NCBI RefSeq assembly: GCF_016907925.1
Contig: NZ_JAFBCZ010000018.1
Coordinates: forward strand, 64,001 to 123,933
Source of the DNA: Herpetosiphon giganteus
GTDB lineage: Bacteria > Chloroflexota > Chloroflexia > Chloroflexales > Herpetosiphonaceae
Length of the DNA stretch: 59,933 nt
Direction: 5' to 3'
The first letter of the stretch is position 1; each line of letters begins with the position of its first letter. The translations under genes and the position numbers were made by a program. Of the stretch, positions 1 through 41,423 are shown in pieces. A model generated the notes under the pieces. It was given only the letters and a program-made list of their open reading frames with translations. It was not told the DNA's origin and made no database searches.

Positions 1-70
1 TATTAGGGGGTGCTGGGGGATGAAAACCCCCGGCGTTTCCCTCCGGCGGAGGGACGGAAGGGTGGCGAAC
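1..70. repeat. 66-70 bp structured dispersed element, copy 1 (truncated by window edge): ttagggggtgctgggggatgaaaacccccggcgtttccctccggcggagggacggaagggtggcgaac
   Basis: Identical sequence recurs at 35768-35837 and 35989-36057. It contains hairpins gggggatgaaaaccccc and ccctccggcggaggg. Confidence 0.8.
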
Positions 71-180
71 CAATACCTAATTATGAGCAATTGTCGATTA
101 CAAATCAATTGACAAAGAACCGCAATCAACATAAAGCCTACCCTCATCAGGAAACTCCAATGGTACAATAGCCGCTGCTG

Positions 181-4354: not shown

Positions 4355-4488
4355 TCCCCTCACCCCAACCCCTCTCCCATTCGATGGGAGAGGGGCTTTA
4401 ATGTCGTAGTTTTTGCATGATTGGTGGTAAAAACGGGTGCTCCCCCTCGCCCGCGTCAAGTGGGAGAGGGGGTTAGGGGGTGAGGGCA
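4355..4488. repeat. REP-like nested palindromic element: cctcaccccaa + cccctctcccattcgatgggagagggg ... ccccctcgcccgcgtcaagtgggagaggggg + ttagggggtgaggg
   Basis: Two internal perfect or near-perfect hairpins flanked by outer inverted arms. Lies immediately 3' of the FTR1 gene. Related elements at 43941-44033, 48588-48633 and 59803-59853. Confidence 0.7.
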
Positions 4489-4496
4489 TATTCAAT

Positions 4497-6827: not shown

Positions 6828-7076
6828 ACAAGCTCCTAAAATTGTGGTTTGCTGCTGCTCACAATGGGCAACAGCAAAATAAACCGACAAAGGACGTGAA
6901 CTGTATGCCAACAGTTCACGCCCTTTACTGCTTAAGTTTTGTGATGGAGGGACGCACACCCAAACTCCATCGACCTTGCTCCGGCGCAACTTCTTTCTCA
7001 CTGAGCGCATAGGTATACCTGTGATACAAGCAGTATACCTATTTTGGTTCGATTTGCGAATCAGTTCGGGAACCGA

Positions 7077-7095
7077 TTTTTAGCCTAACCTACAA
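7077..7095 (-). promoter_or_regulatory. Candidate DtxR/IdeR-type iron box half-site (minus strand reads gTAGGTTAGGCTAAaaatc)
   Basis: 13 of 19 positions match the IdeR consensus TTAGGTTAGGCTAACCTAA. The left half is perfect and the right half degenerate. Located between the imelysin-like gene and the FTR1 gene. Confidence 0.25.
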
Positions 7096-7103
7096 TTTTT
7101 AGC

Positions 7104-8183
7104 TTATTCGCTAATTTTCACGTTCAAGCGAGCAGCAATTTGGCTAACTTGGCCGGTAATTGCATCGGCACGATTTTGGGCTTCAGCACCAAGCAAATCG
7201 GCTTCTTCAGCGGTAAAGCGTTGGCCAGCTTGTTCTTTTTTGTGCACATCGGCAACAAAATCGCGCAGACCTTGTAAGTTGGTCTTGATTTGGCGATCTT
7301 GGTCGGCATCGAGCGTAGCAATTTTGGGGCTAAGGCTGTCGTAGACAACTTGCAAGCTGCCCAAAATATCGCCAATGTCGGCCAAACGTGAGATCGCCAC
7401 GAAATCGCGTTGGGTGCTGCTAGCGCCAGCAACAAAGCGCGAGTTCTTCCACGAATCGAAATATTCGTTCATGGTTGGCACCATCACGACCAAGGCGCTG
7501 AAGGCATCACTGTCGGTTGGTTCCCAGGCTTTGGCGGCGGTATCAAGCTCGGTTGCGGTGGCTTTGAGCTTTTGGGTGGCAGCCAACAACACATTCGCTT
7601 CTGGCAACGATTCGCCAAATTCAAGCGTGCCGTTGCCGTTGATATCGGCTTCAACATCGGTGATGCGGAAAGCATCGTAGGTGCCCCAGAGCGTGCTTTC
7701 GGTTACGCCAAACAAGTTGCCTGGTTTGGCAACCGTGCGACCATCAGCCAAGCTCAAATCGTAGTTGACCACGCTATCGCCGCCTTCTTCAGCCGAAGCG
7801 CCAGCGTCAAGCGTTACGTCGAAATCGGCCAAGCTGCTTACGCCTGCAACGATCCCTTCCATTTGTTCGTAGGTAGGGCTGGATTTCAACCAAGCTGCTT
7901 TGGCATCGTTCAAGGTCGTGCCAACCTCAGCTTGCTTGCTGCTCCAAAGCGTTGCATAATCGAAATTAGCAGCTTTTGCCAAATCATAATAGCGTTGGCT
8001 AGCGGTTTCCAAAGCGGTGGTACTGGTGATCAAATCGCCAGTTTTGCCCAAAAGATAGGTCTTGATTGCGCCAAGTTCGCCAGCGGCGGCGGCTTGGGTT
8101 GGTTGCGTGGTAGGAGCAGCTTCTTCAGCACCACAGCCGAAAAGCACTGCCACGAGCGTTAATGCACAAAGCCAACGATACAT
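7104..8183 (-). CDS. Imelysin/EfeO-like lipoprotein, iron-uptake associated (putative)
   Basis: Lipobox LFGC after start MYRWLCALTLVAVLFGCG (start moved from TTG at 8207 to ATG at 8183, RBS ggagg). Directly upstream and co-directional with the FTR1 permease, as in EfeU/EfeO systems. Family assignment is by overall resemblance only. Confidence 0.45.
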   Translation of the reverse strand: MYRWLCALTLVAVLFGCGAEEAAPTTQPTQAAAAGELGAIKTYLLGKTGDLITSTTALETASQRYYDLAKAANFDYATLWSSKQAEVGTTLNDAKAAWLKSSPTYEQMEGIVAGVSSLADFDVTLDAGASAEEGGDSVVNYDLSLADGRTVAKPGNLFGVTESTLWGTYDAFRITDVEADINGNGTLEFGESLPEANVLLAATQKLKATATELDTAAKAWEPTDSDAFSALVVMVPTMNEYFDSWKNSRFVAGASSTQRDFVAISRLADIGDILGSLQVVYDSLSPKIATLDADQDRQIKTNLQGLRDFVADVHKKEQAGQRFTAEEADLLGAEAQNRADAITGQVSQIAARLNVKISE

Positions 8184-18033: not shown

Positions 18034-18189
18034 ACCATCCTCCTAAACTGTAGCACTGGCTGAATCAGCAACAGTCAGATGCTACAACTCGATAGTAATT
18101 TTTTTGAACGCAATAAGCAATAGCCGATCTAGGCTAGATTATCGTTTTGATCCACGAAGCGCAAGCAGAACATAGAACATAGACAATTA

Positions 18190-18530
18190 GTTACGAAGCC
18201 CACAAAGATAACGTTTTTAGCCACGAATTCCACGAATTCCACGAATGATCATTTTTTGAGCCACAGATTCACACAGATTAGCTCAGATTATGATTCCTAT
18301 AGCCAATAGCCAATAGACTACAGCCACGTTTTCGCCACAGATTGCACCGATAAAGCTTTTTAGCCACGAATTGCACGAATTGCACGAATAATCCGTTAGT
18401 TGCCACAGATTGGCCCAGATTATAATTCCGATAGCCTCCAGCCAAAAGCCACGTTTTCACCAAAGAGTGCCCAGATTGATTTGCTATTTGAGGTGGCATT
18501 TCATTCCTCATCCTTCATCCTTCATAATTT
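18190..18530. repeat. Mosaic tandem repeat block: two ~140-bp higher-order units built from ccacgaatt, cacagatt/ccagatta and tagccaatag sub-repeats, ending in ttcatccttcatccttcataatt
   Basis: Unit A is about 18214-18355 and unit B about 18356-18490. Both begin tttttagccacgaatt(c/g)cacgaatt(c/g)cacgaat. Confidence 0.7.
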
Positions 18531-29860: not shown

Positions 29861-30157
29861 GCATAGAACATAGAGTATAGAGCGAAAGGATGAAGGATGA
29901 AGGATGAAGGATGAAGTTTAACGCATAGGCGCAGAGAACCAAAGGATGAGGGATGAAGTCAATAACCTCATCTTCGTGTCCTTCGTGCTCTTCGTGGATC
30001 AATTCATTAACGCAGAGGCGCAGAGAAAACGTGGCTTTTGGCTATGGGCTATCGGAAGATTGTTTAGAAGGCACAGGATCATCCATCCTAGAGCCTATAG
30101 CCTAGAGCCTATAGCCTCACTTCGTGTCATTCGTGGATCATATTCAGGAGCTAAACA
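29861..30157. repeat. Mosaic intergenic repeat block: (ggatgaa)x4, aacgcagaggcgcagag x2, cttcgtg modules, tagagcctatagcc modules
   Basis: Same module families as at 17331-17445, 18190-18530, 33700-33990, 35640-36070, 41165-41423 and 56730-56947. Confidence 0.7.
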
Positions 30158-35573: not shown

Positions 35574-35687
35574 ATCGCACCACTAAAATTGCTCATTGCT
35601 AAGCATACCTTGCCACAGCGTTGTTGCCAATGTTTGAGTTACTCTAAACGAACTTTAAAGGCTCAGCAATGAGATCAAAATCCTTAA

Positions 35688-36127
35688 CGCAGAGGCGCAG
35701 CGTGTTTTTTGCACGCGAAGCACCCAAAGTTTGGGAATTGGAACTCTAACAACAATCCAACAAACAAACATTAGGGGGTGCTGGGGGATGAAAACCCCCG
35801 GCGTTTCCCTCCGGCGGAGGGACGGAAGGGTGGCGAACGATGAAAGATCTAAGCATCCAGCACTTTGCGCACGGTTTGCGCTAAGGTTGCCAATGAAACC
35901 AGAATGTTGCAGAGGCGCAGCGTGTTTTTTGCGCGCGAAGCACCCAAAGTTTGGGAATTGGAACCCTAACAACAATCCAACAAACAAACATTAGGGGGTG
36001 CTGGGGGATGAAAACCCCCGGCGTTTCCCTCCGGCGGAGGGACGGAAGGGTGGCGAACGATGAAAGATCTAAGCATCCAGCACTTTGCGCACAGTTTGGG
36101 CCAAGGTTGCCAATGAAAACGGCTTGC
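35688..36127. repeat. Tandem direct duplication of a ~220-bp unit (copy A about 35688-35907, copy B about 35908-36127). Each copy embeds the 66-bp structured element. Copy B overlaps the 3' end of the hybrid HK gene; copy A carries a pseudo-3'-end fragment of it.
   Basis: The units differ at only a few positions. Both contain ...gatgaaagatctaagcatccagcactttgcgcac..., the reverse complement of the HK C-terminal codons plus stop. Confidence 0.85.
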
Positions 36128-38210
36128 TAAGCAACAACGGTTGCTGCGCAAATTGCTGTTGTTGGGCCAAACTATGTTCAGAATAGCCTGAAATAAACAA
36201 AATTTTGAGGCTTGGGTCACGCTCGCTCACCAGCTGGCCTAGCTCAAAACCACCCATTTGGGGCATAATCAGATCGGTAATCAACAGCTGAATTGTGCCT
36301 GTAGCGTGGGCCTGCAACAGATCTAGGGCAGCCGAACCATTAGCTGCTTCCAGCACCCGATAGCCCAAACCTTGCAGCATGCGCACCAAGACGGCGCGCA
36401 CTTGTGGCTCGTCCTCGCTGACCAAGATGGTTTCGTTGCCTCGAGGCAGATTTTGGCTAGCATTTGGCGACTCAATGGCAGGCGTTTGCTCCGAACGTGG
36501 CAAATAGATTTTGATTGTTGTGCCACGATCAACTTCGCTATACAAACTAATATGACCGCCATGTTGTTTGATAATGCCATAACTGGTTGCCAAGCCCAAA
36601 CCAGTGCCTTCGTGATCGCTTTTGGTGGTAAAAAATGGCTCAAAGGCGCGGCTTTGCACTGCTTGCGTCATCCCAACGCCGCTATCGCTTACCGCAAACA
36701 CCACATACCGACCAATCGGTACATCAACATGGCTACGCGCATAGGCTGCATCAACCACCAGATTCTGCGTTTCAACCAACAAATGCCCACCGTTGGGCAT
36801 CGCATCGCGAGCATTCACCACCAAATTTAAGAGCACTTGCTCAATTTGGCCTGCATCAGCCACAACTACATCAATAGCAGGATTAAGCACAGTTTTCCAG
36901 TGAATTGATTCAGGCAAGACGCGCTTAATTAATTTTTCCATAGCAATAATTAAATCGTTAAGATTAATAATTTTTGGCTGTAGCTGTTGCTTACGAGCAA
37001 ACGTTAATAATTGAGTTGTGAGTAATGCAGCGCGATTGGTTGCATGTTGAATTTCAGTTAATTCTTCGAGCACTGGCAAACCATGCTGAAAACTATCAAT
37101 CGCCAGCGTGGTATAGCCACTAATCGCCGTTAGCAAATTATTGAAATCGTGGGCCACACCACCAGCCAAGCGCCCAATACTTTCCATCTTTTGAGCCCGA
37201 ATTAATTGCATTTGCAATTGATTGCGATCAGTGCGATCTTCTGTATGCACCATAATTAAATCTGGCTCAATAAAAACATAGCTTACATATAAATCTCTGA
37301 ATTGCTCGCTAAATTTAAATTGATAGCGTAACTCTTGATGAATTGTACTTTTTGTCTGACAACAACGCTGAAAATGTTCGAGAATTTCCGGATCATGTTG
37401 ATAGACAAGTTTGGCTGATTGATTGACAAGTTTAGTAATTGTACCTTGGGTGATGGCTATAGCTGCATCGTTGTAGGTTTCGAGGATAAAATCACTATCA
37501 ACCCAACGCCATGTATAGGTTGGAATCGGAATGCCAGCATATTGGGCGCGAAATTGGTTTTCGCTAGCGCTCAATTGGGCTACAGCCAAACGCTGTAAAC
37601 TTGCCAAGCGATAGACTACGCCAGCAATCATAATCAAAAAGATCGACCAACCCACTAAGACCAACGAATAGCGTTCCGATTGGCGTTTAATCGCTATTTC
37701 CAAATCAAGATACAGCCGATTTTCCAACTGCTCTGCTTCTAACTCAAGTTGCGAGAAGGCAATACGCCGATCGATCGTGGCTTGAGCGTGATTTTGGGGG
37801 CGATTGAGATGCTGCAATAACAAGCCGCGAAAATTGGCTAAATCTTGGCGATATTGGTTGAGTGCTTGGGCTATGGGTGGGGCTGGCGGCAGCAATTGCT
37901 CAAACACGACAACCGGATTTTGGCCCTGCTGCCAATCATCAACCGCTAAAATTGCCCAATCAAGGTAAGCAATTGCATCTTGGGCCAACAAGGTTTGGTT
38001 GCCATTCAGCACTTGCTCGGCAATCAAATAGCCGCGTTGCATATTCAAGCGGGCTTGAGTCAGGCCGTTGAATGCAGTAATTTGGGTTTGAATCATTGCG
38101 CGCATTTGGGAATAATTGGCCTGCAACAAGCCAATTGAAACCAAGGCCACACTCAATAAGGCAATTAATGGGCGTAATTCTTTGCGCCGTAGCCAAGCCA
38201 AAGCCTTCAT
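36069..38210 (-). CDS. Hybrid sensor histidine kinase (TM/sensor region, PAS-like, HisKA, HATPase_c and a C-terminal REC domain)
   Basis: H-box HDFNNLLTAISGY and G-boxes DSGVGM and GTGLGL. C-terminal receiver (ILVSEDEP...LITDLIMPQMGG). Its ATG overlaps the TGA stop of the upstream SBP gene (ATGA). Confidence 0.85.
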   Translation of the reverse strand: MKALAWLRRKELRPLIALLSVALVSIGLLQANYSQMRAMIQTQITAFNGLTQARLNMQRGYLIAEQVLNGNQTLLAQDAIAYLDWAILAVDDWQQGQNPVVVFEQLLPPAPPIAQALNQYRQDLANFRGLLLQHLNRPQNHAQATIDRRIAFSQLELEAEQLENRLYLDLEIAIKRQSERYSLVLVGWSIFLIMIAGVVYRLASLQRLAVAQLSASENQFRAQYAGIPIPTYTWRWVDSDFILETYNDAAIAITQGTITKLVNQSAKLVYQHDPEILEHFQRCCQTKSTIHQELRYQFKFSEQFRDLYVSYVFIEPDLIMVHTEDRTDRNQLQMQLIRAQKMESIGRLAGGVAHDFNNLLTAISGYTTLAIDSFQHGLPVLEELTEIQHATNRAALLTTQLLTFARKQQLQPKIINLNDLIIAMEKLIKRVLPESIHWKTVLNPAIDVVVADAGQIEQVLLNLVVNARDAMPNGGHLLVETQNLVVDAAYARSHVDVPIGRYVVFAVSDSGVGMTQAVQSRAFEPFFTTKSDHEGTGLGLATSYGIIKQHGGHISLYSEVDRGTTIKIYLPRSEQTPAIESPNASQNLPRGNETILVSEDEPQVRAVLVRMLQGLGYRVLEAANGSAALDLLQAHATGTIQLLITDLIMPQMGGFELGQLVSERDPSLKILFISGYSEHSLAQQQQFAQQPLLLSKPFSLATLAQTVRKVLDA

Positions 38211-41164: not shown

Positions 41165-41423
41165 CCTTATGTAGTAAGGATGAAGGATGAGGGATGAATT
41201 ATGAACATCCCCATCGCTCACACCTTGGTTAATCTTGTAGAAGGGTGAAGGATGAGGGATGAATTATGAACATCCGCACCATTCACACCTTAGGTTTGTA
41301 ATGTAAGTTCTGCGCTTGATGTCTAAATTACATATTCAATAATGAAGAATGAAATAACCTTTCTAAATTCATAATTCGTCTATTTCATCCTTCATCCTTC
41401 ATCCTTCATCCTTCATAATTTCG
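41165..41423. repeat. dnaK-dnaJ spacer filled with GGATGAA-family repeats: two ~50-bp direct repeats (gaaggatgagggatgaattatgaacatcc...cacacctt) and (ttcatcc)x4-ttcataatt
   Basis: R1 at about 41178-41230, R2 at about 41244-41295, heptamer run at 41385-41420. R1/R2 and the run are mutually inverted, so long hairpins are possible. Confidence 0.7.

Follow-up and report, generated by a model that had tools for sequence, protein, structure and literature searches.

A probable REP/BIME/BOX-like mosaic repeat of the Herpetosiphonaceae, duplicated in tandem with the 3' end of a hybrid histidine-kinase gene in Herpetosiphon giganteus

Repetitive extragenic palindromic (REP) sequences and the bacterial interspersed mosaic elements (BIMEs) of enterobacteria are intergenic structured repeats that form mosaics with short motifs, occur in short arrays varying among relatives and are conserved between related species. 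REP sequences are also known as join points or companions of tandem duplications. The BOX elements of Streptococcus pneumoniae (boxA-boxB-boxC) are modular, with variable internal or tandem modules, predicted stable stem-loops, either orientation near genes and no encoded transposase. The palindrome-associated transposable elements (PATEs) derived from IS200/IS605, together with REP sequences and their REP-associated tyrosine transposases (RAYTs), have hairpins without terminal inverted repeats, a sharp right border and a strand-specific structure, as expected for recognition of folded single-stranded DNA. Here, we describe a repeat element with features in common with these families, found in a stretch of 59,933 nt from Herpetosiphon giganteus (Chloroflexota; contig NZ_JAFBCZ010000018.1, positions 64,001 to 123,933 of the forward strand; hereafter the window), where it lies between the genes of a hybrid histidine kinase and a HAD-IA hydrolase and is duplicated in tandem together with the kinase gene end. 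We consider it probable, though well short of certain, that the element is a REP/BIME/BOX-like mosaic interspersed repeat of the Herpetosiphonaceae that was, in addition, locally duplicated with a gene end at the kinase locus. No description of it was found in the literature searched, and no such element for Chloroflexota.

Tandem Repeats Finder (TRF) reports positions 35689-36118 of the window as 2.0 copies of a 220-nt period (97% matches, score 825), and an ungapped comparison at offset 220 gives 205 identities in 210 positions between 35689-35898 (unit A) and 35909-36118 (unit B). A 220-bp tandem duplication including the kinase 3' end, as proposed in a preliminary description of this DNA, is therefore real. 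The near-identical units stand head to tail, and each reads, on the + strand, as an 82-nt left module, a 68-nt core and GATGAAAGATC followed by the reverse complement of the kinase end, namely the final 16 codons of the gene with its TAG stop (Table 1). The five mismatches (35713/35933, 35745/35965, 35873/36093, 35879/36099 and 35882/36102) read, on the kinase-sense strand, G/A, C/G, T/C, G/A and C/T, and are thus not adenine-specific. Three of the differences separate the gene-end copy in unit A from the live end, and all are synonymous (TTG/TTA, GCC/GCG, ACT/ACC). No open reading frame (ORF) of at least 40 aa in the window's ORF list ends at this copy, which had been called a dead duplicate: it is indeed non-functional in place, but simple decay does not describe it, all its differences being synonymous and its dimorphism being swapped in Herpetosiphon geysericola, as set out below.

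An assembly artefact is unlikely as the source of the duplication, and we give it hardly any credence. Short-read assemblies do break at the array: among Logan k=31 contigs (from SRR18701128 and SRR25737862), those encoding exactly the same kinase and HAD proteins break off at this spacer. The break points, however, fall exactly where two variant-bearing units predict them, in that one contig (L001) ends exactly 30 nt past the last unit-B-specific base, two others (L002 and L005) start exactly 30 nt ahead of a unit-A-specific base, and exactly one shared 31-mer lies between the two unit-A-specific bases. This is the de Bruijn graph topology that reads containing both units, with the observed variants, would give. 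The five differences between the units and the presence of 2.8 units at the same locus in a separate genome, that of H. geysericola, also speak against an artefact.

In H. geysericola DSM 7119 the orthologous locus (L027) contains 2.8 copies of a 225-bp unit, with the kinase end copied in each; H. aurantiacus DSM 785 and H. gulosus have, at this spacer, a single diverged core, inverted and without a duplicated gene end; and in a metagenomic relative (L058) the kinase-HAD spacer holds a different repeat instead of the core. Copy number thus varies from two units here and 2.8 in H. geysericola to none in H. aurantiacus and H. gulosus, and the units evolve in concert: their identity is 96-98% within species versus 84-92% between H. 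giganteus and H. geysericola. The cores are identical in all five array units of both species, which outside the core differ at about 19 of 140 positions. A linked TTAGCG/TTGGCC dimorphism is found in both species with its array positions swapped, the live end reading TTGGCC in H. giganteus and TTAGCG in H. geysericola. Every difference between the live end and the adjacent copy is synonymous in both species, and the third H. geysericola gene-end copy, the most distant from the gene, carries a frameshift. The identity pattern, the shared and swapped dimorphism and the synonymous-only differences together suggest a single ancestral duplication, after which the units exchanged sequence.

The join itself is best read in H. 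geysericola, where the junction GTTAAGCGTTTAGGTT-TCATTG-GCAAC (in longer form CCTCTGCGTTAAGCGTTTAGGTT-TCATTG-GCAAC) is colinear with the distal flank of the window, GTTAAGGATTTTGATC-TCATTG-CTGAG (CCTCTGCGTTAAGGATTTTGATC-TCATTG-CTGAG), up to the shared TCATTG and then runs on like the kinase sequence CCGTTT-TCATTG-GCAAC; on this basis the window junction, which is shorter and more diverged, is taken as a remnant of flank joined to the kinase end. TCATTG is a short direct repeat at the join point: the kinase gene, the distal flank and the junction each contain it, a pattern consistent with microhomology. In the model that we propose, the ancestor of H. giganteus and H. geysericola would have carried a single element, oriented antisense to the kinase gene and 13 nt past its stop codon. 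Microhomology-mediated slippage or illegitimate recombination would then have produced a tandem copy of the segment that starts at the TCATTG lying 16 codons ahead of the kinase stop and ends at a second TCATTG on the far side of the element. Later unequal crossover and gene conversion between units would have shifted the copy number (2 versus 2.8), and unit exchange would have made the units of each species more alike and carried variants into and out of the live gene end.

Two further observations concern this spacer. ORFs of 87-164 aa cross the tandem units in both species (window 35655-35987 on the - strand and 35731-35994 on the + strand; L027, 1331-1825 on the - strand); they look like spurious read-through of the repeat and are likely to be called as hypothetical genes. 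In H. gulosus (L056, 2220-2699) and a metagenome (L057, 2247-2702), the kinase stop codon is separated from the single core by an AT-rich insertion of about 480 nt, which contains an ORF of 151-159 aa on the opposite strand with no Pfam match on record; H. aurantiacus, H. giganteus and H. geysericola lack this insertion.

The core is the part of the unit that recurs elsewhere. Three exact copies stand in the window, all on the + strand, where shuffles lead one to expect none: one in each tandem unit and a third at the window start, 108 nt upstream of a 296-aa ORF, whose H. geysericola orthologue is L023. The preliminary description had recognised a separable core module and given it 66 bp; the module stands, and its length is 68 nt. 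It is the best-conserved part of a conserved element of about 90 nt, which begins with a leader of about 22 nt (ATCCAC(A)AA..AAAT) that is conserved in every subfamily. After the leader come TTAGGGGGTGC, hairpin 1 (GCUGGGGG-AUGAAAA-CCCCCGGC), GUUU, hairpin 2 (CCCUCC-GGC-GGAGGG) and a purine-rich tail, ACGGAAGGGUGGCGAA, which is Shine-Dalgarno-like in its forms GGAAGGGUGG, GGGAGGAG and GGAGGGGUGGUGAUC. An ATG follows the right end by no more than 9 nt in 21 of 53 copies, versus about 15% expected, and the small ORFs that begin there are not conserved. The right border is sharp (..GGTGGCGAA) and the left border is mosaic, the sequence left of the leader being made up of short repeat modules, including CCACGAAG runs, GGGATCAG runs and AACGCAGAGGCGCAG in either orientation. 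An intergenic region of the window at 18130-18500 that has no core is made up wholly of further short repeat modules of Herpetosiphon (TTTTTAGCCACGAATT with three copies of CCACGAATT, twice; GCCACAGATT/CACAGATTAGCTCAGATT; ATAGCC runs), and these same modules flank cores in L012 and L026.

The ends of the element show no terminal inverted repeats, only internal palindromes; no flanking direct repeat that could be a target-site duplication is evident in the copy flanks examined, the left border being mosaic; and the bases that follow ..GGCGAA are variable (A/C/T/G, with CGAT in one subfamily only) rather than a conserved tetra- or pentanucleotide target. Of the identities suggested in the preliminary description, which were a small RNA, the core of a miniature inverted-repeat transposable element and a protein-binding site, the second is not supported, for want of terminal inverted repeats. 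An intrinsic terminator is rejected, since neither strand of the core has a GC-rich hairpin with an immediate U tract; on the minus strand, a U-rich stretch begins 9-10 nt past the stem. Promoter and terminator scans found no such signal at the core on either strand. An integron attC site was rejected on feature tests.

The family to which these copies belong was delimited with a 19-mer from hairpin 1, which, with one genome per species, returned 37 loci; 29 come from Herpetosiphon or Herpetosiphonaceae/Chloroflexia assemblies, and the other eight match the 19-mer alone. With a covariance model (R1) trained on 28 distinct copies, 53 copies are recognised in the Herpetosiphonaceae loci retrieved, and their flanks are unrelated, in line with the earlier proposal of an independently copied module. 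As lower bounds, there are at least 25 copies in H. geysericola, 10 in Herpetosiphon sp. NSE202, 6 in a Chloroflexia metagenome-assembled genome, 2 in H. aurantiacus and 1 in H. llansteffanensis. Direct pairs or triplets, 171-335 bp apart, occur in 10 of the 37 loci and an inverted pair in one, and one locus (L025) holds a second true tandem duplication, of 176 bp. The kinase locus is one case of this general tendency of the family to pair and duplicate, and it is unusual only in that the duplicated spacer holds a gene end, because the element lies 13 nt behind the stop codon. In the spacer of sp. NSE202 orthologous to window 1-72 the element is inverted and the surrounding spacer sequence is unrelated, and at the L009/L029 locus the core is orthologous and the left flank is replaced. 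The sole inverted pair seen is on a metagenomic contig (L051, 993-1083 on the - strand and 1176-1277 on the + strand), which has a longer, different stem-loop in place of hairpin 2 and a lone GAGGGACGGAGGGTGGCGAATCAT tail fragment about 40 nt after the second copy. This contig was the one true match in a metagenome scan with CCCCCGGCGT-N15-45-GGGACGGAAGGG, which otherwise gave six chance matches in GC-rich coding DNA, and a BLAST search of one unit against plasmids and phages gave no match.

The element is intergenic and shows no orientation preference relative to genes. At the unique loci, the spacers are divergent in 11 cases, tandem with the element in sense in 6, tandem in antisense in 6 and convergent in 3. 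The 65 neighbouring genes are unrelated housekeeping genes (UvrB, asparaginase, M23 peptidases, LacI-type regulators, permeases), and no transposase, integrase, reverse transcriptase or Y1/HUH transposase is among them. With random orientation and downstream genes that are functionally unrelated and 108-670 nt off, a cis-regulatory leader or riboswitch is rejected. Local GC skew, used as a proxy for the replication strand, was uninformative with respect to element orientation (22 of 38). An asymmetry is seen at the right (GGCGAA) end, which lies 0-37 nt from the stop codon of an opposite-strand, convergent gene in 5 of 9 such contexts (L006, L007, L009/L029, L013 at 7021-7109 and the window kinase locus), and the left end is never less than 44 nt from a gene end; a preferred insertion site or an effect on 3' UTRs may lie behind this.

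Conservation is concentrated in the core. Identity in nine orthologous pairs is 94-100% for the core, 50-83% for the 100 nt to its left and 62-96% for the 100 nt to its right. When 51 distinct copies are aligned with guidance from the model, standard pairs make up 98.2% of pair cells, and double changes are found at three pairs, in both hairpins (UG/AU/CG/UA, UA/GC and GC/CG). The covariation score is 0.093, versus 0.040 in shuffles, none of 500 of which reaches 0.093, and at most 0.023 in slid controls; a plain MAFFT alignment, in which the variant hairpin 2 is mis-registered, shows no covariation. Further genomic copies and covariation had been named beforehand, in the preliminary description, as what its proposal depended on, and both are seen, orientation relative to genes being random; the two hairpins that it had drawn now have some support from compensatory changes. 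Either strand is predicted to form both hairpins. The + strand has 42 wobble cells against 3 for the - strand (9 against 3 when the dominant column is left out), which favours the + strand, reading TTAGGGGG..GGCGAA, as the one to fold. Stability relative to dinucleotide shuffles is not marked (z = -1.3 for the + strand and -2.1 for the - strand), and the fold energies are unexceptional for sequence this G+C-rich. The compensatory changes and the + strand wobble bias fit folded single-stranded DNA and RNA equally.

These data bring in the main rival to an interspersed repeat, which is a transcribed-RNA function. The element could be a functional + strand RNA, belonging to a dispersed small RNA family or acting as a portable 5' leader that combines the two hairpins, the Shine-Dalgarno-like tail and a start codon, with the array as a by-product, and we regard this as possible, though unlikely. 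It would account for the compensatory changes in both hairpins, the wobble bias, a core far better conserved than its flanks across species, and the purine-rich tail with its excess of nearby ATG codons. There is also a weak architectural likeness to the Clostridiales-2 RNA (RF02937; 22.9 bits, E 0.0055), which has the same order of parts: a leader rich in A, UAGGGGGUGC, a GC hairpin of 8 bp whose loop is GAAA-like, a second hairpin that varies and a purine-rich tail with AAGGG. The element, however, scores 16.7-22.9 bits against that model, whose gathering threshold is 58.6, and it belongs to another phylum. At gathering thresholds no Rfam family is found in the whole window, and in E-value mode the matches are sub-threshold only, those to whalefall-1, FinP and microRNAs looking spurious. 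Nor does the genomic setting suit an RNA gene or leader: no promoter-like or terminator-like signal flanks the core, tandem contexts are evenly split between sense and antisense, the downstream genes are distant and unrelated in function, the short ORFs behind the ATG are not conserved, the folding energy is ordinary against shuffles, and the number of copies differs between species, with 2 known in H. aurantiacus and at least 25 in H. geysericola. Folded single-stranded DNA, moreover, tolerates G-T wobbles too.

The same conservation at orthologous positions could instead reflect DNA-level selection on a site used by the host, bound by a nucleoid-associated protein, gyrase or a regulator in the manner of BIMEs in E. 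coli. Strictly intergenic placement, independence of gene orientation and frequent pairs would all agree with such a site, but a duplex site would not yield strand-asymmetric wobble or compensatory stem changes, and the large copy-number differences among congeners are hard to square with a core host function; we consider this explanation improbable.

A retroelement or diversity-generating system was also weighed, in which the gene-end copy would be one half of a template/variable repeat pair and the core a target-site hairpin. Its appeal lies in three viral contigs that carry, directly 3' of a stop codon, a motif fitting a degenerate pattern from the first 32 nt of the core, TAGGGGGTGCNGGGGG-N4-9-CCCCCNGC; there the motif follows a gene with a hypervariable 3' end, and a template-like repeat and a reverse transcriptase lie downstream of it. 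At the kinase locus, the differences between units A and B are not adenine-specific, the core is antisense to the kinase gene, which is the reverse of the viral arrangement, no reverse transcriptase is found among the 65 flanking genes, microhomology accounts for the join point, and most copies of the element have no duplicated gene end. This reading is largely refuted and we hold it very improbable. The viral contigs, from IMG/VR, are worth recording on their own account: L043 (1600-3502; also L044 and L045) is a diversity-generating retroelement in which the 3' end of a 448-aa gene is hypervariable across the three contigs, followed by a template-like repeat and then the reverse transcriptase (RVT_1, E 9e-18), and TAGGGGGTGCAGGGGGAAGCGTCCCCCTGC, directly behind the stop codon, resembles the start of the Herpetosiphon core and matches Clostridiales-2 weakly (26.4 bits). 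A doubtful but conceivable alternative is that the element is a previously undescribed, strand-specific functional nucleic-acid module of the Herpetosiphonaceae, either a dispersed structured RNA in which an exposed tail, similar to a ribosome-binding site with a start codon, follows the two hairpins (a portable translation-initiation or ribosome-binding element, or a small RNA) or a folded single-stranded DNA site of a transposition or recombination system, possibly distantly related to the Clostridiales-2 and diversity-generating retroelement hairpins.

Set beside the described repeat families, the Herpetosiphon element differs from each in particular ways. Compared with REP/BIME sequences, its unit is a two-hairpin module of 68-90 nt rather than a single 35-nt palindrome, its array copies are direct instead of alternating in orientation, its copies number tens rather than hundreds, and no RAYT-type gene is known for it. 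The single palindromes and inverted pairs of REP/REPIN-RAYT systems are likewise not what is seen here, with two different hairpins in each 68-nt unit and 10 loci with direct pairs or triplets against one inverted pair. With BOX there is no sequence similarity, and the terminal modules that resemble inverted repeats in BOX have no counterpart in the element. In contrast to the IS200/IS605 PATEs, no Y1/HUH transposase lies near any copy among the 65 flanking genes, there is no conserved border tetranucleotide, and the left border is mosaic. Putative mobile promoters are conserved segments of at least 50 nt upstream of non-homologous genes, and a family in H. aurantiacus has been mentioned (Matus-Garcia et al. 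2012, PMC3488235); the present element, which is likened to them by description only, has no promoter consensus or gene-orientation preference.

On balance, we favour a non-autonomous, recombination-prone interspersed repeat, whose two + strand hairpins are probably recognised by a trans-acting protein. Several points weigh against it. The search for a mobilising enzyme, terminal inverted repeats or target-site duplications at the copies examined found none, and mobility is read only from presence and absence, inversion and copy-number differences, the copy numbers being lower bounds for loci fetched by an exact 19-mer. Conservation of the core beyond its flanks at orthologous sites exceeds what a purely selfish repeat would require and speaks for a function in the host or as RNA; a transcribed leader would be in keeping with the wobble asymmetry, the Shine-Dalgarno-like tail and the nearby ATG of 21 of the 53 copies. 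The covariation comes from few independent events in an alignment fitted to the structure model, and one column dominates the wobble count. Finally, the junction is 10 nt long in H. giganteus and about 16 nt in H. geysericola, so that independent duplications are possible.

Table 1. Coordinates of the tandem array, the element copies and the adjacent genes in the window
Feature	Position	Strand	Basis
Tandem unit A, homologous part (left module + core + spacer + kinase 3' end copy)	35689..35898	.	Identity to unit B; TRF
Diverged 10-nt junction CCAGAATGTT between units	35899..35908	.	Remnant of flank joined to kinase end
Tandem unit B; right end = live kinase 3' end	35909..36118	.	Identity to unit A; TRF; ORF
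Mosaic left module, semi-conserved, unit A (AACGCAGAGGCGCAG.., ..CGCGAAGCAC.., TTTGGGAATTGGAAC..AACAATCCAAC..AAACA)	35689..35770	+	Alignment of ~35 copies with flanks
Left module, unit B (82 nt; in both units also written AACGCAGAGGCGCAG.., ..CGCGAAGCACCCAAAG.., TTTGGGAATTGGAAC..AACAATCCAACAAACAAACA)	35909-35990	+	Same alignment
Element copy, unit A; core 35771-35838; hairpin 1 35780-35802; hairpin 2 35807-35821	35749..35840	+	Model R1, 113.1 bits, E 4e-30
Element copy, unit B; core 35991-36058; hairpin 1 36000-36022; hairpin 2 36027-36041	35969..36060	+	Model R1, 113.1 bits
Third element copy, 5' side cut by window edge; core 3-70	1..72	+	Model R1, 93.6 bits, model positions 21-92
Non-functional copy of last 16 kinase codons + TAG (SLATLAQTVRKVLDA*)	35849..35899 (approx.)	-	Sequence
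Hybrid histidine kinase gene, 713 aa; HisKA, HATPase_c, C-terminal receiver	36069..38210	-	ORF; exact product on record with these Pfam matches
HAD-IA hydrolase gene, downstream of array; protein identical to H. giganteus WP_204756342.1	34938..35570	-	
Sigma-70-like promoter candidate for HAD gene, TTGGCA-17-TATGCT	35602..35630	-	Outside array; consensus match only

Other kinds of repeat are also present in the window. A separate G-rich palindromic family (..CTCCCCCTCGCCCGC..GTGGGAGAGGGG-linker-GTGAGGG) is found at window 4440-4492, in L008 (776-880), in L024 (about 2800-2860) and in L058 (about 2700-2850), where it fills the kinase-HAD spacer instead of the core; it gives spurious sub-threshold matches to plant and animal microRNA models (51.7 bits, MIR1846). 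A kinship between the core and the REP-like copy of this kind at 4473-4488 had been suggested from a 10-nt match, and it is not supported: the linker GTTAGGGG, giving TTAGGGGGTG, occurs in 1 of 19 copies of that family, whose usual linkers are TTGGG or CTGGGG, and the match is specific to one copy. Heptamer arrays (AAGGATG x4.4 and TTCATCC x4.7, reverse complements of similar words) and a 65-bp unit repeated 1.9 times that contains AAGGATGAAGGATGAGGGATGAA, located between them at 29886-29916, 41170-41296 and 41384-41416, form another intergenic short-tandem-repeat family, reminiscent of cyanobacterial heptamer repeats.

For the Chloroflexota, the element adds a well-delimited, structure-bearing interspersed repeat family, and the kinase locus provides a natural example of a repeat region that duplicates and in which the copied gene end still exchanges with the live gene. 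Such repeats explain both the breaks of short-read assemblies at Herpetosiphon spacers and the spurious calls of 100-160-aa ORFs across arrays. Should the core prove to be transcribed, or to be the binding site of a dedicated protein, its extreme conservation would recommend it as a starting point for work on its function.

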